A stretch of DNA of 57,414 nt from Deltaproteobacteria bacterium (GCA_016202395.1 JACQOV010000051.1:1-57414); one strand, 5' to 3'; positions 68-49,811 are shown, counted from the first letter of the stretch. Numbers and translations: made by a program. Notes: generated by a model from the sequence alone, not told the origin.

Positions 68-79
68 CTAGGAGACCTT

Positions 80-12173: not shown

Positions 12174-12187
12174 CGATTTTATCTTCT

Positions 12188-12203
12188 TGGTACGATTCTT
12201 GCA
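12188..12203 (+). promoter_or_regulatory. sigma54 (-24/-12) promoter
   Basis: TGGTACGATTCTTGCA: GG-N10-GC; lies inside the ORF-track N-terminal extension, supporting the later start at 12244. Confidence 0.8.
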
Positions 12204-12243
12204 TCAAACTCAAGGGGGCGAGGTGAAAAGTATGGAGGCGAAG

Positions 12244-13743: not shown

Positions 13744-13772
13744 GGGGTCAGACCTAACTATCTAACTATTTG
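13744..13772 (+). repeat. RAYT-associated repeat R1
   Basis: 29-bp copy preceded by GTAG whose TAG is the stop of the upstream gene. Confidence 0.95.
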
Positions 13773-14733
13773 GGGGATAAAATCTTTTCTTGTTTTGAAT
13801 GAGCTTCCTTTCGAGATGAGCCATTTCTTTTTGAAGATTAGGGTCCTGATCGAGGAGCTTTTGGAGTCGTTTCATTTGCATCGTTAAGATCGTGGGTTCC
13901 CTTTGGTAGCGTTTTCCTACCTCTTTAAATGTTCCTCCCTTTAATCTCTTCCAGAAGTAAGCAATCCATATTCTTGCTCGTGCTTCTTTTCTTGTGCGAT
14001 CCGGATGCTGTAGTACTTTTGGGTAGGTGCCCAGGACTCTGCAGACTTCATTCTCTATTTCATCCAAAGAAATTTCCCAGAAACAAGAAAAAGTTTCTTG
14101 TAATTTCTTCTCCACTTTCGAGTTAAATTCGCTACTTCCTTGAATTCGTTGGCTGCCAATCTTTTCGAAAGGGTCTTCATAATTGAGGGAAATCCCGTCG
14201 AGGATAAATTGTGCGAAGCGATCTCGAGCGATTTCTATTTTTGATGAAAATTGGGAAAGTACGAGGTGAGTTTCAATCCAACTTTCTTGTCTTTGTCCTA
14301 TATAAACGGAATAGGTGGTCCATGGGTAATCAGCTAAATTTTGTGTGAGATTAGCTCGTAGAGGATTCAGGTGAACGTACCGGACGAGCTCAAGGAGGTA
14401 TGATTCTTTATCGCAGAGAATCGCTTTGTATCGCCCTTGAAAAAGGTGTCCCACTCTTCCGTACTTTTTGTTGAAGTATTGTGTATAGGAAGAGAGGAAA
14501 GCTTGGAAAATTTTACTGAGTGGGGTTTCCTGAGCCTCGATTAAACAATGGAAGTGATTAGGCATCAAGGCATAGGCATAAAGCTGGAAGGGGTATTTTT
14601 TGTGGTAGTGCTGAAGACGAGAAATGAATTCGCTATGGTCCCTTTGATCAAAGAAAATAGGTTGCTTTTGGTTTCCTCTTGAAAAGAGGTGATAAAAGGC
14701 GCCGGAATAATGAATGCGAGGCTTTCTTGGCAT
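13762..14733 (-). CDS. REP-associated tyrosine transposase (RAYT/Y1_Tnp) with C-terminal HTH-like extension
   Basis: MPRKPR..YHLFSRGN, LYAYALMPNHFH (HUH), GHLFQGRY, RYVHLNP (catalytic Tyr); stop codon lies inside the left repeat. Confidence 0.93.
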   Translation of the reverse strand: MPRKPRIHYSGAFYHLFSRGNQKQPIFFDQRDHSEFISRLQHYHKKYPFQLYAYALMPNHFHCLIEAQETPLSKIFQAFLSSYTQYFNKKYGRVGHLFQGRYKAILCDKESYLLELVRYVHLNPLRANLTQNLADYPWTTYSVYIGQRQESWIETHLVLSQFSSKIEIARDRFAQFILDGISLNYEDPFEKIGSQRIQGSSEFNSKVEKKLQETFSCFWEISLDEIENEVCRVLGTYPKVLQHPDRTRKEARARIWIAYFWKRLKGGTFKEVGKRYQREPTILTMQMKRLQKLLDQDPNLQKEMAHLERKLIQNKKRFYPPNS

Positions 14734-14782
14734 CCTAATAGTTCCTTCGACATGAAAGGTGCATTTGTTGCTTTTATTTCTT

Positions 14783-14811
14783 CAAATAGTTAGATAGTTA
14801 GGTCTGACCCC
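14783..14811 (-). repeat. RAYT-associated repeat R2
   Basis: Exact reverse complement of R1. Confidence 0.95.
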
Positions 14812-14873
14812 ATGGTTGTGAAGGATTGCTGACAGTGGGATGTAAGAGGATCTTCACAGTATTTTCATAGTAA

Positions 14874-14886
14874 TATCAATAAGTTA
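14874..14886 (+). promoter_or_regulatory. IHF site
   Basis: TATCAATAAGTTA, perfect WATCAANNNNTTR. Confidence 0.65.
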
Positions 14887-14952
14887 TAGAATCGTCCCTA
14901 TTTTCGCCAACCTTCGTTGACAATTCCACACCCCAAAAATAAGACATGCCCT

Positions 14953-14976
14953 GATGACGCAATGCATTGCGTCATC
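14953..14976. promoter_or_regulatory. 24-bp perfect palindrome, candidate upstream activating sequence
   Basis: GATGACGCAATGCATTGCGTCATC, ending ~70 bp upstream of the sigma54 GG at 15046. Confidence 0.65.
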
Positions 14977-15044
14977 GCGTTATCCTATTCAAATTCAATC
15001 CCTTGCAAAGCTCCCCTTGGATGAGCCTCTGTTGAAGCCCCCTT

Positions 15045-15060
15045 TGGCACAGGTTTTGCA
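15045..15060 (+). promoter_or_regulatory. sigma54 (-24/-12) promoter
   Basis: TGGCACAGGTTTTGCA: GG-N10-GC, near-perfect consensus. Confidence 0.9.
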
Positions 15061-15110
15061 AAGTCTCTTCGGTGCGAGGAGTCGTTGGACCTTTAAAAAG
15101 GGAGGGAAAT

Positions 15111-16820
15111 ATGGATCGCTTCAAAAACTTTACAGGGTTGCTAGCCGTGGTTGGGATCATCCTCACAGGTTGTGGCGGAGATGAAGAGACCCGATCAACG
15201 GGGGAGGGGGCTCCTTCCGAGGCCCTCGAGATTTCAAGCGTCGGCTCTTGTTATGCCGTTGTGGGGGAGTCCACCTCTCTCAGTCTTCAAGGAAGCGGTT
15301 TCCAAGGAGGAGCCACCGTCCTTTTTGGCCAGGAGAATGGAGAGGAATTTGGAATTGCCGATGAGAGCGCCATCTCCATCGAAGCCGTTACCGCTTCTTC
15401 TTCTGAAACAATCGATTTAACCGTTACCTGTCACGTGGAAGGATCCTTTGCCATCGCTGTTCAGAATCCAGATGGAACCTCCGATTCTATCGATGGCGTG
15501 TTCCAATGTTCGAGTGAGGCAATCGATTGCTCAGCTGAGCCGACTCCAGCCGATCCCGCTTCTATGGTAAATCTACTTGGAGATCTTCTGGATCAGTTGG
15601 CTCAGGGTGTGGTGGGAAATTTCACTCCCAACATCCTTGCTTACAGTCCTGAAACAGCCACAGCGGGGGAGGCCGTCAGCGTATGGGGATCAAGGTTGGA
15701 AGGGTTTGAGGTTCAGGTGGTGGGGCCTTGTGGGGATCCTCAAGCTGTCACCCGATATGAACCGCTTCTCTCGAACATTCTCGCAAAATTCGATATGCCG
15801 GATTTTGATGCCTGTGGAGAGACAGGGGATACCTTTCCTGTGGCTGTCCAATTCCTTAACCAGGGGGTTGTTGTCGAGTTGGAGGGGAAAGCCGTGGGGA
15901 ATTCCATCACCTTAAATTATTACATTCCGGAGCCCGAGCCTGCACCGACGGTAGAGATTACGGAGTATAGTCCCACGAGTGGAACCTCTGGCGATACAGT
16001 GACTCTTAAGACAAACCAGGGGTTGAAAGACCTATCCATTACCGTTTTTCTGGAAGGGAGAGCGGAGTTTCCAGTAGAGAGAACAGAGAATTCTCTGTGG
16101 TCCAATATCATGGCGACCTTCACCATGCCCTCTTTCGATGAGTATGGAAACTCGCTCGACACACTCGACGTGCGAATTAAATTCAAATCAGCCGAGGGAG
16201 AATCAGTTTCCCTGGTGTACAACGGAGGAACGGTAGGGTCTCTGGGTTTTGCCTATATTGTTCCTTTGAATCCTGCCGATGTCTTTGTGGCGACCGATAT
16301 CATTGATGTGCTCGGTAAGGTGCTGCATCCAGAAGAACCGGAGATCCCGGATGTGGAGGAGGTCATTCAAACGGTTGTCGATATTCTCAAAGATAAGGCC
16401 CCGATCGAGGAGGAGGAAGAGGGGATTACACCGGTTTTGATTATTCCAGATTTCGAAGGGGTGGTTCGAGCTACTGACGAGGAGGAGACGCTGAGCCCCG
16501 AGGATCTTTTGGAGAAACTTCGAAGGGTCGAGAGGATTTTTGGTCCTTCGGCGGAGGAGATTTTTAGAAAGGTCGTCGATATTCTTAACAAACTTTCTCC
16601 AGAAGAGGAGAAGCCCATCGTCCCGGTTTTGATCGTGCCGGATCTCGATCAGGCGATGAATCAGCTCGATCTCGTGGAAATCAACTCTGCGGATATCCTT
16701 GAAAGTTTGGATATCGGGGATCTCCTAAACGAGGTTTTTGATGAGGATCCCATCTCCCCGGTGTTGGTCATCGATGTGAAGGGGGCTGTGAGTCTTTTGA
16801 GAACAGCGCCAACGGAGTAA
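15111..16820 (+). CDS. Lipoprotein with IPT/Ig-like repeats and acidic C-terminal repeats; lead gene of cartridge operon 1
   Basis: RBS AGGGAGGG; lipobox ILTGC; two YSPxxxxxG(E/D)xV IPT-like starts; three PVL(I/V)(I/V) repeats. Confidence 0.7.
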
Positions 16821-16830
16821 AGGGGGAGTC

Positions 16831-17901
16831 GTGAAATGGATCTTTTATGCCGCGGGAATAGGGATATGGGGCTTGTCACTGGCTCACGCCTCTTTGACGC
16901 CGCTCCAAACCGAAACAGCTTTCTATCTTCTAGATCATTTGAGCAGCCTCCGTGTTGTGACCACTGAGGAAGGAAGCCCTCTCACTCATTATGTCTATTA
17001 TCCTTATGGCGAGACTCGGAACGAACAGCCAACCGCCAATGAGCAGTCGCCATTTCGATACACAGGGCAGCGATTCGATTCCGAGACCCATCTTTATGAT
17101 TACGGCGCTCGGTACTACGATCCTAAGATCGGCCGCTTCCTTTCTATCGATCCTGATCCGCAAGGTTTTCTCAGTCATTATTCTTACGTGAAAAACAACC
17201 CGCTGATTTATGTCGATCCGAACGGCCAATGGGAGGTGTGGTTTCACTACGCCCTCACGGTAGAAATAACAAAAAGTCTAGGGTATTCCGACCAAGATGT
17301 TGCGGAGATCGGTTACTTTGCCGCAAGGGTGGATAAGATGTGGACGGGGCCTTCAAAAAACTTCTCCTCTTTGGCTTTTATTGGTGTCCCTTCCCTCCAC
17401 TTTAAGAGCGCTTGGAGCAGCCTCTTTTTCCTGGACCGTTTGAAAATGTCTTGGTTGCCTCAGAATTATCGATTAGGGGCGTTGTTGCATCAAGCTCAAG
17501 ATTACGAAGCCCATGCCAATTTTTGGTTTCCGTCTCCTTTGGAGTCCCTTTTGCAACTCATTCATCATGTCGGTTTGGGAGAAAGGTTCTATCCCGATGA
17601 TCCAACCCAGAAACCGGATAAGACCTTGGCGGCGGCCGATGCGACAGTGGCTCAAATTTTGAAAGGTCCGCAATATAAAGGCCTGTCGGTGGAAGAAAAG
17701 ATCAAACTCCGCGACGAGATTGTGGAGGACGTGGTTCCCAAGATCTTGAATCATGCAGATGCCCGTCGATCGGCATTCGCTCAAATAGAGCCAGAGATTA
17801 TGGATCCGAATACCTCTAAGGAGGAGCAGGCAGAGTTGTACAAAAACTATCAGCAACAGCTAGGACAGATTGAAATGATCGAGGTCGGAAGTGAGGATTG
17901 A
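16831..17901 (+). CDS. Cartridge 1: signal peptide + Rhs-associated core + Zn-PLC/S1-P1/Het-C-like tip
   Basis: LSLAHA signal; [41 protein letters not shown]; tip starts QWEVWFH and has [10 protein letters not shown]. Confidence 0.85.
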
Positions 17902-17902
17902 G

Positions 17903-18880
17903 ATGTTGAGAGAATCTATTTTTTGGATGGGATGTCTATGTTTCTTCCTGTTAGTGCGCCATGGGGCCGCTTCCCCTTCTCCACAAACCGAGACAGCCTT
18001 TTATTTAACGGATCACCTTGGCAGCACGCGGGTGGTGACCAACCCACAAGGAAGCGCACTAGCCCGCCATTCTTATTATCCCTATGGGGAGGTGCGAAAT
18101 CCTCTCTCTGAATCCATGGAAACTCCTCATTTGTTTACAGGACAGGAATATGATTCGGCGGTAGAGCTCTATTATTACGGCGCTCGTTATTATGAACCCT
18201 CACTCGGAAGATTTCTAAGTCTAGACCCTCTTTTAAGGAAAGCCATACGAAGAGAGGAAGACAACCGTGGAAAGAGTTTTGTCGGCAGACCTATCGTATG
18301 GAATGGCTATGTTTACACTCGTAATAATCCCATTCGGTACCTGGATCCCACGGGTGAGGATGACCTCGAGTTTAAAGACAGCTATGACCTTAGTAGGCAG
18401 CTACATAACGGCAAACTTCGATTGGAACTGGGGGATGTGGTGTATCTTGCTCGTGAGGAGCAGGAATACACGGTGACTCGAGTTTTTGGTAAGAGTGACA
18501 AGGTTGAAGGGTATTTGTCCATTCGACCGAAAGATGAAGTGAAAGGGGAGTTATGGATTGCAACAGGCTCTGAAAAGGGGTTATGGGAGGAGTTGAGTGA
18601 TGCCTTAAGAGATCATCCAAAGACAACGGAGGAAATTATAGAAAATGCTTTTGAATTTGCGAAATTTGTAAAATCGCAAGAATTTGATGTGATTGCTGTG
18701 CTTCCCGTGGATGAGAAAGGAGATGTTATGATGGACTCACGACCTGAAAATGTCTATAGCCTCTTTTTTGATTCTATGGCTCTAGGAGAAGATGGTACCA
18801 TACCGCTTCCGTATCCTATCTCGCTGGACGGATTTTACGATGTTGTGAGGAAGCTATACGGCCCCCCTCCTGAAGATTAG
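17903..18880 (+). CDS. Cartridge 2: signal peptide + Rhs core + unknown acidic tip
   Basis: FYLTDHLGSTRVVT..YYYGARYYEP..NNPIRYLDPTG; ATG 17903 after GAGGA. Confidence 0.85.
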   Translation: MLRESIFWMGCLCFFLLVRHGAASPSPQTETAFYLTDHLGSTRVVTNPQGSALARHSYYPYGEVRNPLSESMETPHLFTGQEYDSAVELYYYGARYYEPSLGRFLSLDPLLRKAIRREEDNRGKSFVGRPIVWNGYVYTRNNPIRYLDPTGEDDLEFKDSYDLSRQLHNGKLRLELGDVVYLAREEQEYTVTRVFGKSDKVEGYLSIRPKDEVKGELWIATGSEKGLWEELSDALRDHPKTTEEIIENAFEFAKFVKSQEFDVIAVLPVDEKGDVMMDSRPENVYSLFFDSMALGEDGTIPLPYPISLDGFYDVVRKLYGPPPED

Positions 18881-18907
18881 GGGGTCAGACCTAACTATCT
18901 AACTATT
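18881..18907 (+). repeat. RAYT-associated repeat R3
   Basis: GGGGTCAGACCTAACTATCTAACTATT immediately after the TAG stop of cartridge 2 and 21 nt before cartridge 3. Confidence 0.95.
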
Positions 18908-18928
18908 GGCTAACTATGGTGGAGGAGA

Positions 18929-29515: not shown

Positions 29516-29555
29516 ACCGAACCCCTTTCTTTCCCATGGTCCCAAGAGAAAGTGA

Positions 29556-29571
29556 TGCAAAAAGCGTGCCG
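29556..29571 (-). promoter_or_regulatory. sigma54 (-24/-12) promoter
   Basis: CGGCACGCTTTTTGCA on the minus strand, 40 nt upstream of ATG 29515. Confidence 0.88.
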
Positions 29572-29698
29572 AGATGAGCGGGAAAAATTAGAGTGTAACC
29601 ACTTGTTTTTATGTTGTTTTTTAGTTATTGGAAATGGGATATCGGAACAAATCTATGCAAAGAGTGTTCATATGTGCTCATTTGACTCAACCCAGTAG

Positions 29699-29724
29699 GG
29701 GGTCAGACCTAACTATCTAACTAT
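29699..29724 (+). repeat. RAYT-associated repeat R5
   Basis: GGGGTCAGACCTAACTATCTAACTAT preceded by GTAG, in the divergent promoter region. Confidence 0.93.
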
Positions 29725-29789
29725 CCCGAGATGTGAAGTTAGATTCACAGTGAGGGAGTATCAATTTTTTAACACCGTTTATTCTTAAT

Positions 29790-29802
29790 TATCAAGTAGT
29801 TA
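29790..29802 (+). promoter_or_regulatory. IHF site
   Basis: TATCAAGTAGTTA, perfect consensus. Confidence 0.65.
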
Positions 29803-29907
29803 CGAATTATCCCCTTTTTTAAGCAACCGCCGTTGACATTCTTTAGGGTTTTTTTTCACCCCTTTTCAGCGATAGTTCGTTGCGTCAAACAGAAATAAAG
29901 CCTTAAA

Positions 29908-29920
29908 AATCAAAAGATTA
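29908..29920 (+). promoter_or_regulatory. IHF site proximal to the sigma54 promoter
   Basis: AATCAAAAGATTA, perfect consensus, ending 31 nt before the GG. Confidence 0.7.
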
Positions 29921-29950
29921 ACCAGCCTGTTCTCTCATTCAATTCAGAAC

Positions 29951-29966
29951 TGGCACACCTTTTGCA
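29951..29966 (+). promoter_or_regulatory. sigma54 (-24/-12) promoter of the Rhs shell operon
   Basis: TGGCACACCTTTTGCA, essentially perfect consensus. Confidence 0.92.
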
Positions 29967-30046
29967 ATACAATAATGGCATCTCCAGAGTCACAGTTTAC
30001 CAGCGTGTTTAGAATACCGATGGTGGAGGGTGTAGGAGGTAGGGCG

Positions 30047-33000
30047 ATGGATAAAGGTAAGAGGGAATCTTGGTTCCGACAATTATTGGCCGTGTGGTTG
30101 ATATCGGCTTTACTTGTGTTTCCGGCGTCTTCCGGTTGGGCTGCTCCTTTGGCTAATGCAGATGATGCAAAGGCAAAAGCTGTTTCAGAGAATCTGGTTA
30201 CGAAGGAGGTTGCTTTTGGGGCGCGGTTAGCGACACAGCCGGGAGAAGCATCAGAGATTGCGGAAGAAGAGGAGGAATATAAGGAATTACCTTTACAGAA
30301 TATGACGGAGGAAACGCCACCGGGGCCCGAGAGCGCTCCTTTGAGTTCCATGCAGGTAAGTACGAATGTAGATTCCCATACGGGGTCAGCCAATGCCAGT
30401 GTTCCTATTAAAGTACCAGCTGGGCGAGGAAGGATCGAACCGAAGCTTTCATTGGTTTACAACAGTGGAGGAGCGGACACCCTCCTGGGGCCTGGTTGGA
30501 GTATGCCCATTGGGACGATTACGCGAAGATGGGATCGTATGGAGGGATTACAGTATCGCGAGGATGTTTCTTTTGTCACTGTCATTGGTGGAAAGAGTGA
30601 CACTTTGTATCCGGTGGATAACCGGACTACTTTCATATCTAAAGTTGAAGATCTTTCGAAGTATTACTTAGCTTCTGACAGTTTGTCATGGGAGGTCACA
30701 GACAAGAGCGGAACTCGCTACATTTTTGATCTACACGTAGCGAGGGATGGTGATGACGATTCTGCATCGTCTGTTAGCGATATTTATAAATGGTACTTAA
30801 CACGGATTGAGGATTTAAAAGGAAACTATCTCAGGATTGAGTACACCCGAGATCGTCCTTCTGATGATGAGTTTGCCGAAGAGTTTTATCCGGTGAGTAT
30901 TTATTACACTGGCCATTCAGATGATGAGAACTTTAGGAATCGGGTGGATTTTGTGTATGAGCGGAGGCCAGAACAGGTTCTGGTGGGGGATGGAGGGGAT
31001 TTTCGCTTGGTCAGCCATCACAGGCTTGTGGCGATTGAAGTTTATAGTGATCAGGGAAATGAACTCCTATGGAAATATGAGTTGGAATATCAAGCAGGGT
31101 ATTCCTGGATCGGAACACGATTAAAGAGCGTGAGGATGATTGGGGCCAACCCCTTGGATGAACTGCCACCGGTTACATTTACGTATTATGAGTTTCCGAT
31201 AGGCGAAGATGGAATGCCGAGATTCGTCGAGGAAGTGGGAGGAACTTGGCCAGGAGCTCCCACTACGGGTTATCTGCGATCTCATCGAGAGAGTGGACGA
31301 TGTGTTGTAAGTGATTTTGTGGACCTCAATTGCGACAAACTTACCGATTATGTGGAGGTGAGGGGGAGTGAGTGCCCTTATGATGGAAATGATATTAAAG
31401 GTTATGAGGTATTGAGTTGGGAAGGGCAATGGTGGAATGGTTGGTCGGAGGAGGAGATCGAGGAATGGGTTTGGCGGGAGCTGAGGGAAGATTATCAGCA
31501 ACTGGAATGGCGTTTTTATGAGAATAATGGAGAAGGCTTTGAGGCGTACAAGGTCTTTGAGTCACCTACCTCTACTAAACGTGAAAAGCTTTATGCCTGT
31601 GGTGATTGTGATAGTTATGTGGAAGTAGAAATTACTTATTACCTTTATACTGCTCTTTCTCTAGTGGATAACGATGGTGATGAACTATTCGATGTGATGG
31701 ATATCAATGGAGATAGTTGCCCGGAGTTGGTTGCGTCAGGAAAATACACGAATCGTCAAGGTTGGCTTGTTTATCACAATATCAATCGTAATGAGGATAC
31801 AGGCGGCGTTGGATTTGTTACGAACTCAGAATTTTGGGAAACGCCGGATGGATCGGTTCCTTACATATCCCGTACCCACCTCGATGAAGAAGCCAATCAA
31901 CTCACCCAAGGCTTCTTCCAATTCTATCCTTCTGATCCGCCAGAGTATCTCAATTCGGAGGCTAGCACGCCATATTGGAAGATTTATAAATTTAACGTGG
32001 GGGAGGAAACCTACGATCTTGAAAGCATCGAGGTGGAGCAGAAAAAAGTGGGACCGACGGGCATGTACTATCTTACGGCGCGGGGAGCAAAGAGTGTGAT
32101 AGGGGGTCTTTTTAATTTTCCAACGAGCAGTTCATTGAACTACGTAGTGGCTGATTACCCTGGAGAGGGAGATGGGAGTTGGTATTATTATGATCGGGAT
32201 AGTGAAGGGGATTTTTCTACATCGGCTGAGAGCTTTGAGGTTCCTTACACTGATGCGGCTGCGATATTTCAATCGAATGATTCGGGACAGACGCATGGAT
32301 TGCTTCCGATGGAGGGAAGGAACGATGACACACCGGACTACGTAACCACAACGGACGATCAAGGTAAAGCGACCACCACCTGGACGGTGTACATCAATAT
32401 GGGGGTAGGAAGTTGCTTTGGGAAGTATGATCCTGCTGGTGGGACAGAGCCTTTGTGTCGAGAGGGAGTAAGTTTTCAGGGACCTGGGGAATATTTGTCG
32501 GACTATAAGGGGGTGAATCTTGGGGCCGCCTTTGAAGATCTGGATCGGAGTGGGATTTCGGATTATGTAGTGGCAACTACCGATGGCTGGACGATCTATC
32601 GAGATCTGAAGGCTCCTTTAGATACGGCTGCAGCCGCAAGCATTGGCCCAGAGGCTCATGGGGTTTCTTCGGGGACTTTGTATTCAGTGAATAATGGGTT
32701 AGGTGGAGTCACCTCTTTCCAGTACACCCCTTCGAGCCAGTTTACGAATGCAAATAGTGACGGAAAAGATACTCTCTCTGTGGTTTTTCCCGTGGTGACG
32801 GAAGTGAAAATAGAGGATGGCTTTGGGAATAGTTATGTGCGCACCTTCGATTATGAAGGGGGATATTTTTATCAGGGGAATGAAGCGGTGAGTGTGGGGC
32901 CTGGGACTGTGACCTCTTGGGTAGATGAGTTTCGTGGATTCCAGAAGGTTAGGGAGACAGATCCCGAGGGTAAAGTGACGGAGACGAGGTTCTATCAAGG

Positions 33001-36000
33001 TAGAAAGGATGGAGCAACTTCCAATGAAAGGGATTATGCGTTGCAGGGGCAGGTGGTCAGTCAGACGGTTAAGGATTCAAGTGGGCGTTTAGTGAGTCAG
33101 ATGGATCATGAGTGGGAATTAGCGACATTCCAAGGGGGAAGGTATCCCAGGTTTAAGGGCAAGACGAGTTGGATCTATGATGAAAGTGGAGGGAGTCGGA
33201 AGCGGAAAGTGTCATTTGTCTATGACGCCTATGGGAATGTGGTGAAGATGCACGATCATGGAAATCCAGATTCAAACGATGGTGATGAGTTCAGTGAATG
33301 TGCGACTTACTACACACCTGATCTGGAATCAGGGGATCCATGGATATTAGATCGGAAGGCAAGTAGTTGGACACAGGAAGAAATAGTCTCCAACATTTCG
33401 AATGCTTGCCAAGGGAGTACAGGCCGACTGAATGAACGGGTTTACTTGTATGATTTGCAGGAACCGTGGGAAGGGGATCTACCAAATCTGAGCACATGGG
33501 ATGTGACAGAGTCGGGGAACTTGAGTGAGGAGTTTGTCCATTTAGTAGATAGTACGAGTGGAGTAGATCGTTGGATAGGGTATCGGTACAACGAGTATGA
33601 CGAGTATGGGAATTTGGTGGACATGTGGGACGCCCGTGAGAATCGGACGCACATCGTTTACGTTTATTTCGACACACTTGTGACAAGTGTGACAGAGGCT
33701 TATGAGACGGAGGAGGCTTATACGACTTACTATGAGTATAGTGAGCGCTTTAATGAGGGGACGGGCTTAGCGTCAGTGGAAGAAGATCCGAATGGGGCAA
33801 GGGTTGAGACCGATTACGATACCTTAGGTCGTGTGATTGAGACTCGTCGAGGAACCTATTCGACAACCTATTCCACCGAACGAATCGAATACAACAATTT
33901 AGGGGTCCTCCCTGGAACCCATTCCTCTTGTCAAAGTCGTCCAGAATCTCCCCCTGTGGAGAACGTGAATCGTTCGAAGTGGATAGCCATTCCTTCCGAT
34001 GAAGTGGAGCCTCAAGGCTCGAGGTGGTGGTTTCCATTTACGAAAGGGATTCAGTCCGTAATGCCAAAAGAGCGTGAGGAGTGTCAGAATGTTCGGAAGG
34101 AGGTAGTCGATAATGTCGGAGGGGGGACGACATGGGAGGTTTCCTATTTTGATGGGATGGGGAGAGGTTACAAGGCGGTGAAACCTTCGGATCAGGGGAT
34201 GGTGAAGTCGGTGGTGGAGTTTGATCTCTTGGGGCGTGTGTCGCAACGTTCTGTACCTGTTTTGTTGAGTCAGGCACTGGATCTTCAAGACAGCCGCCTA
34301 TGGATGAAAATGGAGTATGACGATTTCTCGCGAGTGAAGGTATTGGAGCGACCGTCTCCGGATTATTCTGTTGCAGAGCGATTTGAGGTAAGCCATAAGG
34401 GGTACGAAATAAAGATTAAGGATGCAGGTTACAATGCTTCGGGAAGCCCTGGAATGTTGACGAAAGTGAAGGTGAATTCGCAGGGGCGGCCCGTAGAAGT
34501 TCGAGAGTGTTTCGAGGAAAGCTGTTCAGGAGTAGCACTTACTCAATACAAGTATCATGCGGTGGGAGGGCTTAAAGAGATTAAAGTCACGCCTTACGAA
34601 AGTTCTTACGGAACCATCACTACTCAATTTACATACGATAGCCTAGGGCGCAGAGTTGTAGGCAAAGATCCTAATCAGGGGACGTGGAGCTATAAATATG
34701 ACGATTCGGGTAATATCGTGAGGCGTGTTGACGCCAAGGGGAATATCTGGCGATTTGAATACGATGCCAGAAATCGTCTAGATCGTAGATTTTTGGACAT
34801 GAACGACGATAGTGCGCCGGATGGGGCGGTTGTAGATTATCAATACGACACAGGTTCAAGTGGTTGTTATTCTCAAAGTCGGCTAACCGCTATTGTAACG
34901 ACCGGCTCCGACAACGATCATTCGATCTCTTACTGTTACGATCGACTGGGGCGTGTCGCCTTAAAAACAAGGACGTTAAGCGATGGTTCAGCGTATGGCT
35001 TTGCTTATGCCTACAATGGCCTGGATCAGGTTACCCAGATCACCTATCCGAGTTGGTATACGGTCCAATATGAATACGATGATACGACTCTTCAGCTCAA
35101 GCGTGTCAAAAGCGCGTTGGACAACCAACTCCTCGTGGAGGACATAAAATACAACGAGCGGGGAGGTGTTGCCCAAATCGATTACGGGAATGGAACCACC
35201 ACAATGATGGACTATGAAGAAGGCTCGCAGCGAACCGAAGAGATCCGTGTAGATCGGACGAGTGACAGTGCAAAACTTCTGGATCTGGTTTATCAATATT
35301 ATGCCAGTGGAGATGTGAAGCAGACAAAAGAAACGGCGTCGTCATGGACGGAAAACTTTTACTATGATGGTTACCATCGTTTAATACAAGCCACGCGCAC
35401 GGATCAAGGAAATCCCACTCATGACTATCTCTACGATTATGATTCCATCGGGAATATGATCCAGAACACCGCGGTCACCACAGGGGAATACCATTATGAG
35501 GATCCAAATCATCCTCATGCGGTGACCTCAATCGATAATTCATATGACTTTGATTACGACGACAACGGTAACCTTGTATCGAAATTTCGTGCAGATCGTT
35601 CGGTTGGGACTAACTACGGTTGGGATAGGGAAGAAGCTCGGCTCGATTATGTTTGGTCCATTGATTATGAAAATAAACTCAGTGACATTACCTATTTTTA
35701 CTATCATGCCGATGGTCAAAGAGTAAAAGTAGCGAGTGGTGATGCTATATCAGGACAACTCTCAGAGGTTTTGACGCTCGAAGGGCTTTATGAAGAGCGG
35801 GAAGGAGAAATCATCCATCATGTGTATATGGGGAGTCAGAAGGTAGCAGAGGTTACTATCCCGCAAGGAACCGATCTTCGTGCCACCTCCGCAGGCATTA
35901 TTTCAAACCACAGCGTCTCTTGGTTCTTCTCCCATTGGGATTCCTACGGGTGGGTTTTCTTCCTCTTCGCTTTTCTCATCTATTTCCTTGTTCTGTGGAT

Positions 36001-43700: not shown

Positions 43701-44783
43701 ATGGATTTCATTAAATCAAAAGTACTTCAAATTTTAATTGGAGCGATGCTTTTTGCGTTTTCTTCTCAAGCTCAGGAAGTTTTTTATCTGACCGATCATC
43801 TCGGCAGCGCGCGGGTGGTGACCAACGAATCGGGAGCCGAGCAGGCCCGCTATGCTTATTATCCGTTTGGGCAGATTCGGGGTTCCGATCTGAGCCAGTA
43901 TGCTACTTTTAATACCTACACGAATCAGAAATTCGACACCGAAAGCAACCTCTACTACTACGGCGCTCGGTATTATGAACCTGGCTTCGGCAAGTTCTTA
44001 AGTCCCGATCCCCTCCGAGAGATTTTGAATCTTTATACCTATGCTCGAAACAATCCGCTTTTGTTTATCGATCCTGATGGAAAACAGACTCAGATAGAGG
44101 ACCTCAAAGGGGATGAGGATCTGGAGACGGTGCAACAAGCTTATCGGAATACAGTCTACCAATGGGTGGATTACACGCCGATTCTAGGGCCTCTTCGGGA
44201 TGTTCATCGTGTGTTTTTTGATTGGGATCCTGTTGCGGATACACCGCATCATGAATCGGCTCAGGGAGAGAATGAAAGATTGGCTTGGGCCATTGTTCGA
44301 TTGGGGGGGGATGTGATGGCCTTGAGTTTGTTGATGCCGGAGGTAGGTGCGGCAGCTCAAGAGGGGAGAGCTGCTATCAGCCTGGAGGCTCGTGGAAAAC
44401 AATATAGGATCGCTCTCGGATTAAAGAAACCTCTTCGGTATCACGTAAAATCGCTTGAGGAAGGGCATGGATACGGCGATATCAAAACCTATTGGGGAGT
44501 CGTTTTAGATTCTAGGATCTCTCCGGACTCCGGGATGGAACTTTCCTTGATGCCTGGCAAGAAGACATTTTTCCCCAACATCAAGACCATCTTGGAGAAT
44601 CCCAATGTGGAGGCCCACTTTACGATGAACGATTTTAAAGTGCCTGAAGATATGGGGGCAGCGCTGGCAGGGGAATCGAGTCGGACAGATTTTGAATACG
44701 CCAAGATCATGAGGATCATCGAGAAAGATCCTACCCAAGCGGATCGGTTCCACTTTTATTACAATTTCGGGAATAAGAAATGA
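43701..44783 (+). CDS. Cartridge 11: signal peptide + Rhs core + pre-toxin-TG-like segment + putative nuclease-type tip
   Basis: SSQA-QEVFYLTDHLGS..NNPLLFIDPDG; VDYTPILGPLRD; IALGL..HFTMNDF..TDFEY..FHFY pattern. Confidence 0.85.
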   Translation: MDFIKSKVLQILIGAMLFAFSSQAQEVFYLTDHLGSARVVTNESGAEQARYAYYPFGQIRGSDLSQYATFNTYTNQKFDTESNLYYYGARYYEPGFGKFLSPDPLREILNLYTYARNNPLLFIDPDGKQTQIEDLKGDEDLETVQQAYRNTVYQWVDYTPILGPLRDVHRVFFDWDPVADTPHHESAQGENERLAWAIVRLGGDVMALSLLMPEVGAAAQEGRAAISLEARGKQYRIALGLKKPLRYHVKSLEEGHGYGDIKTYWGVVLDSRISPDSGMELSLMPGKKTFFPNIKTILENPNVEAHFTMNDFKVPEDMGAALAGESSRTDFEYAKIMRIIEKDPTQADRFHFYYNFGNKK

Positions 44784-46045
44784 TCTCTATATCCTTGAAG
44801 AAATTCATTGCGATCCCTTTGATAGCGATTTTCTCGGTGACGAGCTTTTCGTCCCCGGGGTTCCAGATTCCGTCGGTTCACGCGGCAGCCTGGGCTCCGG
44901 ATTCTCCCTCTAAGCCCTCTGTCAGTACCCTTCGATATTACAGTTGGGATCATTTAGGGAGCACGCGGGTGGTCACTGATGGCTTGGGTTCAGAGCAGGC
45001 CCGGTATTCTTATTATCCTTATGGTGAAATGCGGGGGAATTGGGATCTTGTACAGCTCCCTTCTTACAGTACCTACACGAGTCAGAAATTCGACACCGAA
45101 AGCAACCTCTACTACTACGGTGCGAGATACTATGATCCGAAGCTAGCTAGGTTCGTCAGCGCCGACCCCATTGTTACGCTGGAGCCTTATGCCTATAGTC
45201 GAAACAATCCTCTTTATTACACCGATCCCGATGGAAATTTTGCTCAGGCTGCAGTAGCGCCTCTTCTCCCTTTCGGCCCTGTGGGATGGGGGCTCGCCGC
45301 GGGGATCCTTGTGGGGGTTACGGTATACGGACTTTGGGCCACCGGGAATCTTCCCGGTTTGGAGGGGATCCGACCGGTTCCTTCCCCCTCACTCAACTAT
45401 CCCGGTTCGACCCCTGTCACTCTCCCTTCGCAGCCGGGGTATCAATCACCAGCTGTTAATACTAAGAATGCGCCGTTCCCTGTTACCGCCTCCCCTTCAT
45501 TGAAAGAGGTTTTTCCGGATGGAGCCGGGCTCCTTCCTCCTCCAGTTTTCCTGAGTCAGGATAAAACCTATGGTGAAGATCATCCCATCGTTGTAGGGAT
45601 AGGACAACAGGCACCACGGGCATACCTCATGCTGCAGCGGGGGGGTAATATAACGGGGGTTACGGCGGTGGATCCGGCGCTTGAACCCATGGGATTTAAC
45701 CCGAGCGTTGAGGAGTTAAGCATCACGGCGGGGGAGTTGGCAGAACTTGGATATCAAGGCATGCGGGTGTTTGTGGATAGACCCGGATTGTGGCAAGGGA
45801 ACACTGTGACTAGCGTTGCACAAATGATAGCTATGCAGGAGATCATGGAGGCAATGACATTAGTCGCTCCGGGTGGAACTCTTATTGCTTCTTACGATCA
45901 CGATGATATCTCTCCCCCTGCTATAGAGATTTTGGCAAAGAGCGGTTGGGGGCTTCTTGCTGCCGATGAGATGGTCCAGGTGATGGCGGACAGTGGTTAC
46001 TTCCCCACAGGGAGAGAGGTGGTTGGCTATCGAAAACCTCAGTAG
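44780..46045 (+). CDS. Cartridge 12: signal peptide + Rhs core + Gly-rich TM + Pro-rich linker + SAM-methyltransferase-like tip
   Basis: YSWDHLGS..NNPLYYTDPDG; IVVGIG, VTAVD and LVAPGGTL motifs. Confidence 0.85.
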   Translation: MISISLKKFIAIPLIAIFSVTSFSSPGFQIPSVHAAAWAPDSPSKPSVSTLRYYSWDHLGSTRVVTDGLGSEQARYSYYPYGEMRGNWDLVQLPSYSTYTSQKFDTESNLYYYGARYYDPKLARFVSADPIVTLEPYAYSRNNPLYYTDPDGNFAQAAVAPLLPFGPVGWGLAAGILVGVTVYGLWATGNLPGLEGIRPVPSPSLNYPGSTPVTLPSQPGYQSPAVNTKNAPFPVTASPSLKEVFPDGAGLLPPPVFLSQDKTYGEDHPIVVGIGQQAPRAYLMLQRGGNITGVTAVDPALEPMGFNPSVEELSITAGELAELGYQGMRVFVDRPGLWQGNTVTSVAQMIAMQEIMEAMTLVAPGGTLIASYDHDDISPPAIEILAKSGWGLLAADEMVQVMADSGYFPTGREVVGYRKPQ

Positions 46046-46046
46046 G

Positions 46047-46073
46047 GGGGTCAGACCTAACTATCTAACTATT
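46047..46073 (+). repeat. RAYT-associated repeat R7
   Basis: 27-bp exact copy one base after the GTAG containing the stop of cartridge 12. Confidence 0.95.
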
Positions 46074-46086
46074 GGAAGGTGGCACA

Positions 46087-47181
46087 ATGACGAATCCAAT
46101 CAAATCAAAAGCGTTTCAGATCCTAATTGGAGTGGCGCTTTTAGGGTCTTTTTCTCAGGCTCAGGAAGTTTTTTATCTCACAGATCATCTCGGCAGCACG
46201 CGGGTGGTGACGAACGAATTTGGGGCGGAACAGGCTCGCTATGCGTACTATCCGTTTGGTCAGATTCGGGGTTCGGATCTGGGGCAACTCGCTTCCTATA
46301 ACACCTATACCAGCCAAAAGTTCGACGCCGAAACGAGTCTCTTCTACTACGGCGCTCGGTATTATGATCCTGGATTGGGAAGGTTTGTGAGTGTCGATCC
46401 TGTTGTAAAATCTTCTATTCCTCAAGATCTGAACCCCTATGCCTATACTTGGAATAATCCGTTGAGAGTGATTGATCCCAGCGGGGGACAGGAAAAATAT
46501 TTCCAGATCCTTCAAGAGTATTTGCGATGGGTGTCAGGGAGAGTAGATAAACTGGATAATAAGATTGATAAGCTCATAAATGATGGAATAGATCTCCAAG
46601 AGCAATATGGTGAATTTGTGTTGCCTTCCGAAGAGAGTATGCGTAAGTGGTTGAAGCTTAACGTTGATTTTGGCTGGAAAACACAAGCTCAGGTAGATGA
46701 GATCCTAAACGACCCTGATAAAATGCAATCGCTTCTAACACGATCTGGAGAATTTGTGATCGATAAGAATAAGAATCCGATCATGTATGAAGCAAATGAG
46801 AAATTGCAGCAAAGGGTGCTCAAACTTATTGAACAAAAATTGCCCATGGATGACCTATTGGAAAGCGCTCATAGTGGTGGGTTGGATGAAGTGTATCAAG
46901 CAGCTTTGAAGGATAAGCAATTTGTAAAATATTTGAAGGGAATAGGGATGTTGTCTATCGCTTTATCTGTTGTGTCTCTTGCAGAAGAGGTGAGCGCTTC
47001 TGAGGATCCTTCTCAGGCCGCTGAGATCATTGATGAACACATTGAAAACTTTGTGGGTAACGGTCTATTGGGTCCCCCTTGGGAAATAATAGCAATAGGG
47101 GCGGGTCTACGCGAGTTACCTGAGCTTGAGGACCCTTACAGCTCGGAGGATTGGGGCCCTTATTTGGATCCTTTTAACTAG
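46087..47181 (+). CDS. Cartridge 13: signal peptide + Rhs core + helical tip + shared C-terminal tail
   Basis: FSQA-QEVFYLTDHLGS..WNNPLRVIDPSG; tail ASEDPSQAAEIIDEH..DPYSSEDWGPYLD. Confidence 0.85.
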   Translation: MTNPIKSKAFQILIGVALLGSFSQAQEVFYLTDHLGSTRVVTNEFGAEQARYAYYPFGQIRGSDLGQLASYNTYTSQKFDAETSLFYYGARYYDPGLGRFVSVDPVVKSSIPQDLNPYAYTWNNPLRVIDPSGGQEKYFQILQEYLRWVSGRVDKLDNKIDKLINDGIDLQEQYGEFVLPSEESMRKWLKLNVDFGWKTQAQVDEILNDPDKMQSLLTRSGEFVIDKNKNPIMYEANEKLQQRVLKLIEQKLPMDDLLESAHSGGLDEVYQAALKDKQFVKYLKGIGMLSIALSVVSLAEEVSASEDPSQAAEIIDEHIENFVGNGLLGPPWEIIAIGAGLRELPELEDPYSSEDWGPYLDPFN

Positions 47182-47200
47182 CCATCGTCAATTGAGTAGA

Positions 47201-47218
47201 GGGTCAGACCTAACTATT
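47201..47218 (+). repeat. RAYT-associated repeat R8 (one CTAACTAT unit missing)
   Basis: GTAGA-GGGTCAGACCTAACTATT directly upstream of cartridge 14. Confidence 0.88.
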
Positions 47219-47234
47219 GGAAGATGATGCGGTG

Positions 47235-48383
47235 ATGAGTTCCATCAAATCAAAAGTAGTTCAAATTTTCATTGGAGCGATGCTGTTTGCGTTTTCTTCT
47301 CAGGCTCAGGAAGTTTTTTATCTCACAGATCATCTTGGCAGCACGCGGGTGGTGACGAACGAGTTCGGAGCCGAGCAGGCCCGCTATGCCTACTATCCGT
47401 TTGGTTTTGCTCGCGGTGAATCGGGAGTTGGGATTCTCACTCATAGGTATACAGGAGGCCCATTGGATCGAGAGGCCTCCCTCTATTATCTTCAGGCTCG
47501 CTATTATGATCCAGCGCTAGGGCTGTTTGTTTCCGTGGATCCCATTCTTGAAACAGGTCAGCCCTATGCGTACGCTCGAAATAACCCAGTTCGGGTCGTT
47601 GATACAACCGGCCTTTCAGGTGAAGATAAAATCGATGACTGGGACTTATTGCGATTGTATTATTACAAAGGATCTTTAGGGGGGGAGGCCGGCATATTCG
47701 AGAAGAGAGGACCTATTGTTGCAGGGGGAGAACATTCGATGGCCGTTCCTAAAACCCTTTCTGGAAACAGTTGGGCCCATCGTCATAACGAAAGAGGGGC
47801 TATTCCTTCAAAGAAGGATATTGAGGTAACCACCCTGGCAGCGGAGGCAGCAGAAGAGGAGTTCTATCATACCGTGCTGGATCGATGGAAAAATGTGATC
47901 GACTTTAGCCTGAGCCCCGATGGAGAAATGACACTCTATCGAAACGACGGTGGAGCGGTTCATTTAGGAAGGGTCAGTGATATTATCGATGGCGCGGTCT
48001 ATCAAGGAGGGTTTGTGGAGGATATGGCTGACTGGACTGAGATCCGAACTTCTCGGGGAACGTTCCGTTTAGAATTGGACAAAAAATTGGGATTTTCATT
48101 AACTCACTTTGCTTTGAATGGTTCCCAACTAACGACTTACGCTATTGGGAGGGAACTTTCCGTATGGGGGGCGGTGAAGGCACGAATCCAAAGTGGAGGT
48201 AGATCGAGAGTGAAGGGGACCGCATTGACGGTGGGGATCTCTCTAGGGCTTAATCTTCTTTTCAAGGATGAAGCGGAGGGATTCGGGGATGTCGTAGGGC
48301 GAACGGCAATTGATATGATCGATCCCATGGTCCCCATTCGTGGTGAACTGGCTTGTGGGGTCGGTGAGGAGTGTCAGCCTTAA
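47235..48383 (+). CDS. Cartridge 14: signal peptide + Rhs core + JAB/JAMM-motif tip
   Basis: SSQA-QEVFYLTDHLGS..NNPVRVVDTTG; HRHNERGAIPSKKD = HxH-x7-S-x2-D with upstream GGEAG. Confidence 0.85.
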   Translation: MSSIKSKVVQIFIGAMLFAFSSQAQEVFYLTDHLGSTRVVTNEFGAEQARYAYYPFGFARGESGVGILTHRYTGGPLDREASLYYLQARYYDPALGLFVSVDPILETGQPYAYARNNPVRVVDTTGLSGEDKIDDWDLLRLYYYKGSLGGEAGIFEKRGPIVAGGEHSMAVPKTLSGNSWAHRHNERGAIPSKKDIEVTTLAAEAAEEEFYHTVLDRWKNVIDFSLSPDGEMTLYRNDGGAVHLGRVSDIIDGAVYQGGFVEDMADWTEIRTSRGTFRLELDKKLGFSLTHFALNGSQLTTYAIGRELSVWGAVKARIQSGGRSRVKGTALTVGISLGLNLLFKDEAEGFGDVVGRTAIDMIDPMVPIRGELACGVGEECQP

Positions 48384-48416
48384 GTGGCAAACTTGGCACA
48401 GAATGGGTTGGGGGAT

Positions 48417-49622
48417 TTATCGAGGAACGTTGGTGTATCGCGTGAATTGGGTTTCATTCAACGCGACCCCTGCGTCGTTTAGTAAATTACCTAAGTAACC
48501 ACCGAATTGATCAAGGTTCGTCTTGTAGTGCCCCGTCCAATCGATAATGTTTGTCATCTTTCCCCCTTCAAACTCAAAATAACCTGCGCCATAACTATTC
48601 TCTCCCCCAACGAGAGAACTATGACCGAAACGCCTCCCAAAGGGGGACTCTTCGAGATCCGCGGCGTTAAAGTAGATATTTCCTTCTCCATCCACGTTGA
48701 AGATGTAGAGCCCCTCGGCAAGCTCTCCCTCGATGCCATAGATGAGCCCATTCTCTCCGACATTTTCTTGCAAAATCAGATGTTGAGACTTTCCCCAATA
48801 CTCCGCCAAGCGGTCGAAATTCTCACGATCAAGAGTCTCTCTTCCATTCGACCATCCCCCTTCGGGTCCCGCGTAACCGTTCTCGGCGGTTGGGCCTCTC
48901 CGCCCCGCAGAAGAAAAACTGTTCCCCCGGGCTTCCCAGGCCGTTTTCAACGAAGTACGTGCATCGTAATAGGCGTCTACTGTGATCCCTGTGGCAACCA
49001 GAGTTAGTGGAACTGTTGCAACGGCCGTCGGAGGGCTCCCTATCGACGCGGCCCCACCTCCAACCATTCCAGCAACCCCTGCAACCATACGATAGGTCGA
49101 TCCCGCAAAGGCCCCCCATTGGAATGCGAAATCTTTCGGCGCAGTTCGGGGATCGTAAAAGGGGCTTGTCGCTGCGATCATCCCTGCCGCGAAACGCCAA
49201 TCCTCGGGATCGCGTCCATTGGGATCCACAAAGCCGAGTGGATTATTATTGGCATAAGTGTAGGGGGAATTATTTTTCAACGGATCGATGCTGATGAAGC
49301 AAGCCAGTTGTGGATCGTAATACCGTGCCCCGTAGTAGTGGAGGTTGGTTTCGGAGTCGAACTTCTGACCGGTAAAAAGGTAAGAAAGATCCCCCTCACC
49401 CCAACCCTCTCCCCTCTGGGGAGAGGGCGAAGGGTGAGGGGAAAATATCTCACCATAGGGATAGTAAGAATAACGGGCTTGCTCTGAGCCAAGACCATCG
49501 GTCACCACCCGCGTGCTGCCGAGATGATCTGTGAGGTAAAAAACTTCCTGAGCCTGAGAAGAAAACGCAAACAGCATCCCTCCAATTAAAATTTGAAGTA
49601 CTTTTGATTTAACGAAATCCAT
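48417..49622 (-). CDS. Cartridge 15: signal peptide + Rhs core (with palindrome) + Gly/Ala TM segment + ART-like tip
   Basis: MDFVKSK..SSQA-QEVFYLTDHLGS..NNPLGFVDPNG; YIFNVDGEG..HSSLVGG..GAG..GGKMTNIIDWTGHY. Confidence 0.85.
   Translation of the reverse strand: MDFVKSKVLQILIGGMLFAFSSQAQEVFYLTDHLGSTRVVTDGLGSEQARYSYYPYGEIFSPHPSPSPQRGEGWGEGDLSYLFTGQKFDSETNLHYYGARYYDPQLACFISIDPLKNNSPYTYANNNPLGFVDPNGRDPEDWRFAAGMIAATSPFYDPRTAPKDFAFQWGAFAGSTYRMVAGVAGMVGGGAASIGSPPTAVATVPLTLVATGITVDAYYDARTSLKTAWEARGNSFSSAGRRGPTAENGYAGPEGGWSNGRETLDRENFDRLAEYWGKSQHLILQENVGENGLIYGIEGELAEGLYIFNVDGEGNIYFNAADLEESPFGRRFGHSSLVGGENSYGAGYFEFEGGKMTNIIDWTGHYKTNLDQFGGYLGNLLNDAGVALNETQFTRYTNVPR
49392..49441 (+). repeat. In-frame palindrome copy P4
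   Basis: Encodes PHPSPSPQRGEGWGEG in minus-strand cartridge 15. Confidence 0.9.
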
Positions 49623-49638
49623 ATTCGTACCATCTTCC

Positions 49639-49805
49639 AATAGTTAGTGTAGTGTAACAGTAATCACTTTACAGGCCGTTCGTGGTGAGCCTGTCGAACC
49701 ATGAACGGAACCCCCCGATATATTTCACCCTTCGACAGGCTCAGGGTGAACGGGATATGTAAAGCCGTTACTGTTACACTACATTAGATAGTTAGGTCTG
49801 ACCCC
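49639..49805 (-). repeat. RAYT-associated repeat R9, split by the MITE
   Basis: AATAGTTAG (49639-49647) + TTAGATAGTTAGGTCTGACCCC (49784-49805); removing the MITE and one TTAG restores the 27-mer upstream of cartridge 15. Confidence 0.88.
49648..49783. mobile_element. 136-bp MITE with 16-bp TIRs and apparent TTAG target duplication, inserted in repeat R9
   Basis: TGTAGTGTAACAGTAA (49648-49663) / TTACTGTTACACTACA (49768-49783); TTAG on both sides; internal hairpins CCGTTCGTGGTGAGCCTGTCGAACCATGAACGG and TTCACCCTTCGACAGGCTCAGGGTGAA. Confidence 0.88.
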
Positions 49806-49811
49806 CCGCTT

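Follow-up and report, generated by a model that had tools for sequence, protein, structure and literature searches.

A TIRtron beside small Rhs cartridges and the solo terminal inverted repeats in their spacers

The 57,414-bp contig C28 of a Deltaproteobacteria bacterium (GCA_016202395.1), taken here in its entirety as the window and drawn from a source genome of 1.9 Mb (108 contigs, 89% complete), carries a gene for an HUH/Y1 enzyme between two copies of a perfect inverted repeat. Seven further copies of the repeat lie downstream, five of them just upstream of small genes that encode an Rhs core and a variable tip (cartridges). The best explanation for this arrangement is that the repeat is the terminal inverted repeat (TIR) of a TIRtron, and that the seven extra copies are solo TIRs, non-autonomous and dependent on the enzyme, a TIRYT, which is a tyrosine transposase in the RAYT superfamily. 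Beyond this, we give a probability of about 0.5 to the reading that the solo TIRs reside in array spacers, depend on the enzyme and are amplified together with cartridge 5′ modules. The C28 element is a new member of a described, little-studied TIRYT/TIRtron family. New here are the 59 small Rhs cartridges in one genome, a second TIRYT together with three TIR families of one design, and an enrichment of TIRs at cartridge 5′ boundaries that involves three TIR families on five contigs.

The TIRtron and its copies in the window

The 323-aa product of the enzyme gene, TIRYT-1, combines a Y1/HUH domain (Pfam Y1_Tnp, PF01797, E = 1.3e-12) with a C-terminal helix-turn-helix (HTH) like that of DnaA. 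The HUH motif reads HFH, and the catalytic Tyr lies within RYVHLNP. Residues 219-311 match the DnaA C-terminus (TIGR00362, E = 4e-8), and there is a weak match to Pfam Bac_DnaA_C (E = 5.7e-5; 23.5 bits, under the gathering score of 31.5). The NCBIfam model REP_Tyr_transpos (NF047646) scores 83.5 bits, just over its cut-off of 80. The gene is enclosed by R1 and R2, a perfect 29-nt inverted repeat with its arms 1010 nt apart.

TIRYTs have been described as Y1 proteins flanked by TIRs instead of REP hairpins, in a “TIRtron” whose TIR motif is GGGGWSAS, and in some genomes TIR copies occur as singles, dimers or groups (Di Nocera, De Gregorio & Rocco 2013, PMC3733652). They form subclass 2.1.2, which has Bac_DnaA_C-type C-termini and no adjoining REPs (Quentin et al. 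2018, PMC6006769); the C-terminal HTH types of this subclass are Bac_DnaA_C, HTH_23 or HTH_28. The head of the C28 repeat, GGGGTCAG, fits GGGGWSAS, and a single strand of the repeat folds at –1 kcal/mol (z = +0.8) without a hairpin, on which ground we rejected a reading of it as a REP hairpin. Since the head fits and hairpin potential is lacking, the sequence identifies the element as a TIRtron (Di Nocera 2013; subclass 2.1.2) and not as a classic REP/RAYT system. The initial annotation was right to regard the repeat as the cognate end-repeat of an intact HUH/Y1 enzyme, but the enzyme that it called a REP-associated RAYT is a TIRYT with non-palindromic TIRs.

The full unit of this repeat, family 1, is 27 nt long and consists of the head GGGGTCAGACC followed by the tandem 8-mers TAACTATC and TAACTATT. 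When the window was searched for the 18-nt core GGGGTCAGACCTAACTAT with up to 3 mismatches, nine matches were found against 0.01 expected from shuffled sequence (13744+, 14811–, 18881+, 27132–, 29699+, 43658+, 46047+, 47200+ and 49805–), which confirms the two flanking and seven further copies first noted. The enzyme gene and the copies are as follows.

TIRYT-1 gene: 13762..14733, minus strand; 323 aa, Y1/HUH domain and C-terminal DnaA_C-like HTH
R1: 13744..13772, plus strand; left TIR of the TIRtron, overlapping the final 11 nt of the TIRYT gene, directly after the TAG stop of open reading frame (ORF) 12139-13743
R2: 14783..14811, minus strand; right TIR of the TIRtron, preceding the TIRYT start by ~50 nt and the sigma54 promoter at 15045 by 234 nt
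R3: 18881..18907, plus strand; solo TIR, head abutting the TAG stop of cartridge 17891-18880, ending 21 nt before the ATG of cartridge 18929-20098
R4: 27115..27132, minus strand; 18-nt truncated solo TIR in the 38-nt convergent spacer between the last cluster 1 cartridge (stop 27101) and an 806-aa gene (stop 27140)
R5: 29699..29725, plus strand; solo TIR with its last base changed from T to C, in a region of divergent sigma54 promoters, 252 nt before that of the shell operon (29951)
R6: 43658..43684, plus strand; solo TIR upstream of cartridge 43683/43695-44783, gap to the likely ATG 10 or 16 nt
R7: 46047..46073, plus strand; solo TIR after the TAG stop of cartridge 44780-46045 (one extra G between), 13 nt before cartridge 46087-47181
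R8: 47200..47218, plus strand; solo TIR with G1 changed to A and one 8-mer deleted, upstream of cartridge 47217/47236-48383, gap ~17 nt
R9: 49784..49805, minus strand; head part of a split solo TIR whose last 9 nt (CTAACTATT) resume at 49639-49647, upstream of cartridge 48417-49622

Among the solo copies, R3, R6 and R7 are complete units. R9 is a whole unit that a 136-bp miniature inverted-repeat transposable element (MITE) splits after 22 nt; without the MITE, and only then, its distance from the ATG at 49622 is 16 nt. With this correction, R3, R6, R7, R8 and R9 all end 10-21 nt before the likely cartridge ATG and point into the cartridge, so the claim that five copies stand upstream of cartridge starts holds, with a wider range of gaps and, for R9, only in reconstructed form. 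R4 does occupy the spacer at the end of cluster 1, as had been proposed, but as an 18-nt stump co-oriented with the 806-aa minus-strand gene, after that gene's stop. The position of R5 upstream of the shell operon (252 nt from its promoter) and the lack of family-1 copies in the housekeeping flanks (1-13743 and 50985-57414) both agree with the initial annotation. Two inverted pairs, R3/R4 and R5/R9, bracket cartridge blocks of 8.3 kb and 20 kb. A degenerate remnant before cartridge 23686 (~14/24 matches) was too weak to call.

Outside the window the genome holds only two more family-1 copies, and neither abuts a cartridge start: one (C46:13113) follows a gene for an FG-GAP/RCC1 surface protein, and the other (C59:6810) precedes an ABC-transporter operon whose last two genes, 4 kb away, are cartridges. 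TAG directly precedes the head in 7 of the 11 copies and GTAG in 5; R2, R4, R9 and the C46 copy have neither. At R1, R3 and R7 this TAG is the stop codon of the upstream ORF. Family-1 copies as a whole occupy short spacers and are co-oriented with transcription, usually right after a TAG and just before the ribosome-binding site of the next gene.

The ORF upstream of R1 ends in GGTCAG-GGTCAG-TAG (13725-13743), that is, in two extra partial heads, and a family-3-like head (GGGGTCAGGCTTCGAGTAG; see below) lies directly 5′ of the family-1 copy on C59. From these two cases, TIR heads tend to stack.

TIR families, enrichment and conservation in the genome

A second TIRYT, 51% identical to TIRYT-1 and more conserved in its Y1 half than in its HTH half, is encoded on contig C57. 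Its TIRtron (C57:8205-9260) is bracketed by GGGGTCAG + TTTTAAGT + (T/A)TTTAAGT. This family-2 TIR is present genome-wide as about nine REPIN-like doublets and as singlets (on C2, C11, C24, C36, C71, C93 and others); the doublet has an extra inverted head inside (A-B-A′-spacer-B′-A′) and folds at –38 kcal/mol. Family 3, with the form GGGGTC(A/C/T)GGC + TTCGGTAT + TTCGGTAT, comprises one perfect doublet, which folds at –32 kcal/mol, and ~14 diverged copies; the assembly, 89% complete, yielded no cognate TIRYT gene for it. Family-3 copies are mostly located within Rhs arrays, and several are followed by arrays of GTCATCCCCGCGAAAGCGGGGATCC-type hairpins.

Family-3 copies (GGGGTCNGGC-TTCGGTAT-TTCGGTAT): C57:3635-3700; C30:1168, 1755, 4730, 6645, 7311; C95:21539, 22354, 24767; C104:8778; C65; C89

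All three families have one design, a GGGGTCAG head with two tandem 8-mers, which is new in that it is not described in PMC3733652 or PMC6006769. TIRYT homologues were found in WOR-3, Nitrospirota, Bacillota, Desulfobacterota, Patescibacteria and others. In the TIRs of 12 homologues from other phyla, a GGGGTCAGG head (11/12, with a similar head in the 12th) is followed by two short direct repeats, which differ between elements (for example TCAAGTAT twice, or TGCAT-type). Because the design is common to the elements and the 8-mers differ, the Y1 domain may read the conserved head and the HTH the variable 8-mers.

The family-1 repeat is neither scattered over the genome nor a general cartridge marker, since it marks only 5 of the 59 small cartridges (5/16 in the window), all within 36 kb of the HUH gene. 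Nine of its 11 copies are on C28, almost confined to the 36 kb next to that gene. What remains of the cartridge-boundary marker proposed in the initial annotation is an enrichment at cartridge 5′ boundaries of copies that point in, and this extends to the other families. The head GGGGTCAG occurs 82 times in the genome; 14 of these occurrences are found 96-270 nt before a cartridge's conserved DHLGS anchor (~0.2 expected), and 13 of them point in. With a crude gene model (1791 genes, 92% coding), doublets collapsed to single loci and loci at the ends of TIRYT genes left out, 10 of the remaining 35 TIR loci are directly upstream of a cartridge, all pointing in, where ~1.3 were expected. By family, the counts are 5/9, 2/12 and 3/14 for families 1, 2 and 3, and loci within a family are not independent, as the R6-R9 units have a common leader and signal peptide and the C28 cartridges form one clade. 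Since each family is fused to a different type of leader and signal peptide (MDFIKSK.., MKVRFEK.. and MKRWFVS..), the association of TIRs with cartridges arose at least three times.

The association is specific to this genome, as judged from six other TIRYT genomes and from Rhs loci of other taxa. The six genomes contain 0-1 Rhs cores each; among them, a WOR-3 metagenome-assembled genome (MAG) has 12 TIR copies and no Rhs core. Upstream of Rhs cores at 80 loci of other taxa, GGGGWSAS is no commoner than chance predicts: 25.7 kb held 4 forward matches, none of them TIR-like. The exact 23-nt core of the family-1 repeat had no match in the genome-contig or metagenome-contig collections.

R1, R2, R3, R6, R7 and the reconstructed R9 are identical over 27/27 positions of the TIR. 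Over the 213 nt that follow, identity is 71-80% among R6-R9 and 47-56% between these and R3. Under equal decay of TIR and flank, such TIR identity has a probability per pair of ~0.001 at 78% flank identity and ~1e-7 at 55%. In family 3, which lacks a cognate gene in the assembly, copies vary by 1-7 nt. Family-1 TIRs are thus either young or constrained, because they are identical where their flanks have diverged while family 3 decays. The constraint would most simply be recognition by TIRYT-1.

Homology among the R6-R9 units starts exactly at the TIR head. In the cartridge tree, R3, R6 and R7 are grouped with support, together with one TIR-less paralogue, within the single C28 clade; the placement of the five TIR-bearing cartridges is unresolved and compatible with a single origin, and independent insertions are neither proven nor excluded by it. 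All-against-all comparison of 61 tips gave one pair at 69% identity (neighbours) and nine other related pairs at ≤43%. With tips so nearly unique, no whole cartridge has been copied recently.

TIRs share these spacers with unrelated small repeats, which are also concentrated upstream of cartridges (0.84% of the genome): CCCGCGAAAGCGGG hairpins at 5/13, some of them attached to family-3 TIRs, the GAGCCTGTCGAA palindrome at 2/10 and GATTCTGCTGAAAAA at 2/5. This pile-up of unrelated repeats points to a permissive-spacer effect.

Weighing the explanations

In the scheme that we favour, the HTH would read the variable 8-mers and position the Y1 domain on the conserved head and the TAG|GGGG junction, which the Y1 domain would nick. 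Insertion or retention 3′ of (G)TAG would put TIR copies behind stop codons, and that placement would fix their orientation and, in packed arrays, set them right before the next cartridge. Insertion 3′ of TAG could in this way account for copies that lie behind stop codons and for their uniform orientation in sense, an argument built on a small sample. Recombination among cartridges would co-amplify a module of TIR, leader, signal peptide and core, as in R6 to R9. The genome is compact, with 92% of it coding, and small repeats would collect in the cartridge arrays as in a permissive sink. The presence of TIRs at cartridge boundaries would then be a by-product, and the TIRs would not be a dedicated cassette-recombination site.

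Several observations weigh against this scheme. The idea of a TAG target comes from 11 copies; in families 2 and 3 the flanks are different (AT). Every mechanistic step assigned to the TIRYT is inferred from sequence. Spacers directly upstream of a cartridge account for 3.7% of intergenic length and hold 10 of the 35 loci (binomial 4e-7, provided that loci are independent), and at least three, probably six or more, separate events led to an equivalent position and one orientation, which is more regular than a passive sink predicts. The perfect conservation of the TIR means ongoing constraint or very recent spread, neither of which a by-product model requires.

A rival reading, which develops that of the initial annotation, is that a domesticated TIRYT uses TIRs as recombination or nicking sites to copy, invert or shuffle cartridges, either in an integron-like manner or by nick-stimulated gene conversion. 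In its favour, the Rhs island has the TIRYT gene at its edge, TIRs of three families are strongly enriched and oriented at cartridge 5′ boundaries, solo TIRs have stayed identical to those at the ends of the enzyme gene, and the R6-R9 homology begins at the TIR head; moreover, one TIR-bearing cartridge is inverted (R9), and the inverted pairs R3/R4 and R5/R9 bracket cartridge blocks. However, only 5/16 local and 10/59 genomic cartridges have a TIR, and the 43 cartridges on other contigs multiplied without family-1 TIRs. A 3′ partner site is lacking, tips are unique without whole-cartridge copies, other repeats occupy the same spacers, and TIRYTs and their TIR families thrive in genomes without Rhs. 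We consider shuffling of this kind unlikely. The same judgement applies to its narrower form, a doubtful one, in which a co-opted TIRYT nicks solo TIRs between a stop codon and the next ribosome-binding site, and so triggers cartridge recombination or gene conversion that generates toxin diversity.

Solo TIRs might instead be cis-regulatory, with the DnaA-like HTH or another factor binding the 8-mers 5′ of the ribosome-binding site to control selected cartridges. Tandem direct 8-mers of the kind found in the TIR are typical double-stranded DNA sites for HTH proteins. The fixed position of the TIRs 10-21 nt before start codons, always in sense, their strong conservation, and the equivalent place of R2 before the start codon of the TIRYT itself are all consistent with operators. 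R2 and R5 are also ~230-250 nt upstream of perfect sigma54 promoters (TGGCAC-N5-TTGC; 15045 and 29951) and beside TGTGAAG...CTTCACA palindromes, which could be a candidate enhancer; at R5 the adjoining palindrome is TGTGAA-N6-TTCACA. But R2 and R5 have opposite orientations relative to their promoters, and R1, R4 and the C46 copy come after genes, not before them. No sigma70-type promoter or terminator was found in or at the TIR. An operator role is improbable. A link between sigma54 and TIRs was also set aside, given the opposite orientations of R2 and R5 and the lack of such a promoter at the cartridge-proximal copies.

Pure hitch-hiking is disfavoured and the least probable of all; here tandem duplication would have carried a single old TIR insertion along passively with the cartridge 5′ end, with no current part for the enzyme. 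It would account for the common leader and signal peptide of the R6-R9 cartridges and for the supported clade of R3, R6 and R7 with a TIR-less paralogue. It conflicts with TIRs that are 27/27 identical beside flanks at 47-80% (equal-decay probabilities of ~0.001 to ~1e-7 per pair), with the independent associations of families 2 and 3 on other contigs, and with the decay that family 3, lacking a cognate TIRYT in the assembly, does show.

Whichever explanation applies, the accumulation of solo TIRs in front of Rhs cartridges, in one orientation, places these repeats in a new context. TIRYTs are widespread across phyla, yet PMC3733652 and PMC6006769 report no TIRYT function, biochemistry or assay, and propose assays as future work. 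This genome offers a natural test set: two paralogous enzymes with their own TIR families and a third, orphan family that is decaying. The common head with variable 8-mers yields the testable prediction that the Y1 domain reads the head and the HTH the 8-mers. If the TIRs are functional, they would link HUH nucleases to polymorphic toxin diversification; co-option, if true, would give TIRYTs their first demonstrated biological role and would amount to an HUH-nuclease analogue of cassette variation of the integron or pilin type. If they are a by-product, they show where such repeats survive in a compact genome.

Gene neighbourhood and comparison with known systems

The source genome has no close kin in our searches: none of the nearest kin among 40 relatives was closer than “same domain”, and ArgH is ≤60% identical to any entry of the genome collection, its top match being a groundwater “Nitrospirae” MAG. 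The left end of C28 holds housekeeping genes (1-4 kb), followed by an FG-GAP protein, a sigma54 activator and unknown genes. After the HUH/Y1 gene come a 582-aa unknown gene and ten small Rhs_assc_core cartridges (cluster 1), then the 806-aa minus-strand gene and two SpvB/TcdB_midN/RHS shell genes (29975-42414). Cluster 2 follows, and the right end carries a sulfatase gene and lysine/arginine biosynthesis genes. Weaker sigma54 sites are at 4157, 12188, 29571(–) and 52621(–).

Cluster 1: 16831..27101, plus strand; ten Rhs_assc_core cartridges, TIR only at the third (18929)
Cluster 2: 42483..50984; five cartridges on the plus and two on the minus strand, TIR at four (43683, 46072, 47217 and 49640–)
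Core palindrome sites: 20362-20411, 22698-22760 and 42675-42737; both orientations, from an inverted-repeat search
MITE inside R9: 49648..49783, minus strand; 136 bp, TIR TGTAGTGTAAC..., target duplication CTAA
Further MITE copies: window 1-70; C59 ~6630-6790; C99:6756-6872; C105:9885-10003

The genome contains 62 Rhs cores, three in large shell proteins and 59 in small cartridges, on ~30 contigs. The small cartridges encode ~350-430 aa each and together make up ~3.6% of genome DNA; each has its own start codon, ribosome-binding site and signal-peptide-like leader. The four TIR-bearing cartridges of cluster 2 have one leader and signal-peptide module in common. The second shell gene (1666 aa; 37414-42483 region) has no core at its end; cartridge 42483 begins 68 nt further on with its own leader, and this junction contains no TIR. 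Several cartridge cores contain a near-perfect palindrome of 50-63 nt (CCCCTCACCC..CTCTCCCC TTTGGGGAGAG..GGGTGAGGGG), in both orientations.

The MITEs are of two types, with TIRs TGTAGTGTAAC.. and TAAGGGCACCTCT.., an inner palindrome in common (CCGTTCA..GAGCCTGTCGAA..) and target duplications CTAA/CTAG (IS5-like YTAR). The internal CTAA of the family-1 TIR was the insertion point for both types, with R9 and the C59 copy as the two cases. A functional link between MITEs and TIRs was set aside, because the family-1 TIR contains the CTAA/CTAG target twice, which explains the MITEs in these two copies. C28 itself starts inside a MITE copy, which probably explains the assembly break.

Of the systems compared, TIRtrons are the closest. 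The C28 enzyme has the Y1/HUH domain, RAYT-like motifs and C-terminal Bac_DnaA_C-type HTH of a TIRYT; its gene lies between TIRs, one of which overlaps its 3′ end, with a head that fits GGGGWSAS. Further points of likeness are the extra TIR copies (single, dimer or group) and the presence in one genome of multiple TIRYT genes, each paired with a TIR family of its own. Unlike in the described cases, family-1 copies here are few, all singlets and clustered beside the gene, and about one-third of the TIR loci are directly upstream of Rhs-tip cartridges, a context not reported in PMC3733652 or PMC6006769.

With RAYT/REP-REPIN systems, the element has in common a single-copy HUH/Y1 gene flanked by its cognate repeat, and the inverted doublets of families 2 and 3 that fold as long hairpins. 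The GTAG tetranucleotide that marks the 5′ end of REPs stands before the head in 5/11 family-1 copies, a partial likeness. It differs from these systems, which are said to have been described by Nunvar in 2010, Bertels and Rainey in 2011 and Ton-Hoang in 2012, in a family-1 repeat that has no palindrome, hairpin or doublets, in having 11 copies where they have tens to hundreds, and in the extra HTH domain of the protein.

IS200/IS605 enzymes choose their targets by a fixed 5′ flank (TTAC or TTGAT). As in IS608 and ISDra2, Y1/HUH chemistry and strand-specific orientation go together here with a fixed short 5′ flank, TAG, a candidate target and cleavage guide. However, the ends of the C28 element are inverted repeats without subterminal hairpins, there is no TnpB, and the element is not multiplied whole, being present as one gene copy and one 51% paralogue.

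Integron attC/attI arrays likewise have a short conserved spacer site between promoter-less-looking genes of a variable array, and a recombinase gene at the array edge. In contrast, the site here is present at a minority of junctions and has no folded attC-like structure, the enzyme is an HUH/Y1 nuclease and not an integrase-family tyrosine recombinase, and the cartridges have a conserved 5′ module able to recombine homologously.

Rhs orphan-tip arrays and their recombination, reportedly treated by Jackson in 2009 and Koskiniemi in 2014, resemble the C28 clusters in being built of units with a core and a variable tip, which diversify through recombination at that conserved core, with mobile-element remnants between units. 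In E. coli, H-rpt/ISAs1 elements are present in Rhs loci. The C28 units differ in having their own start codon, ribosome-binding site and signal-peptide-like leader, and the elements lodged between them are TIRYT end-repeats instead of insertion sequence copies.

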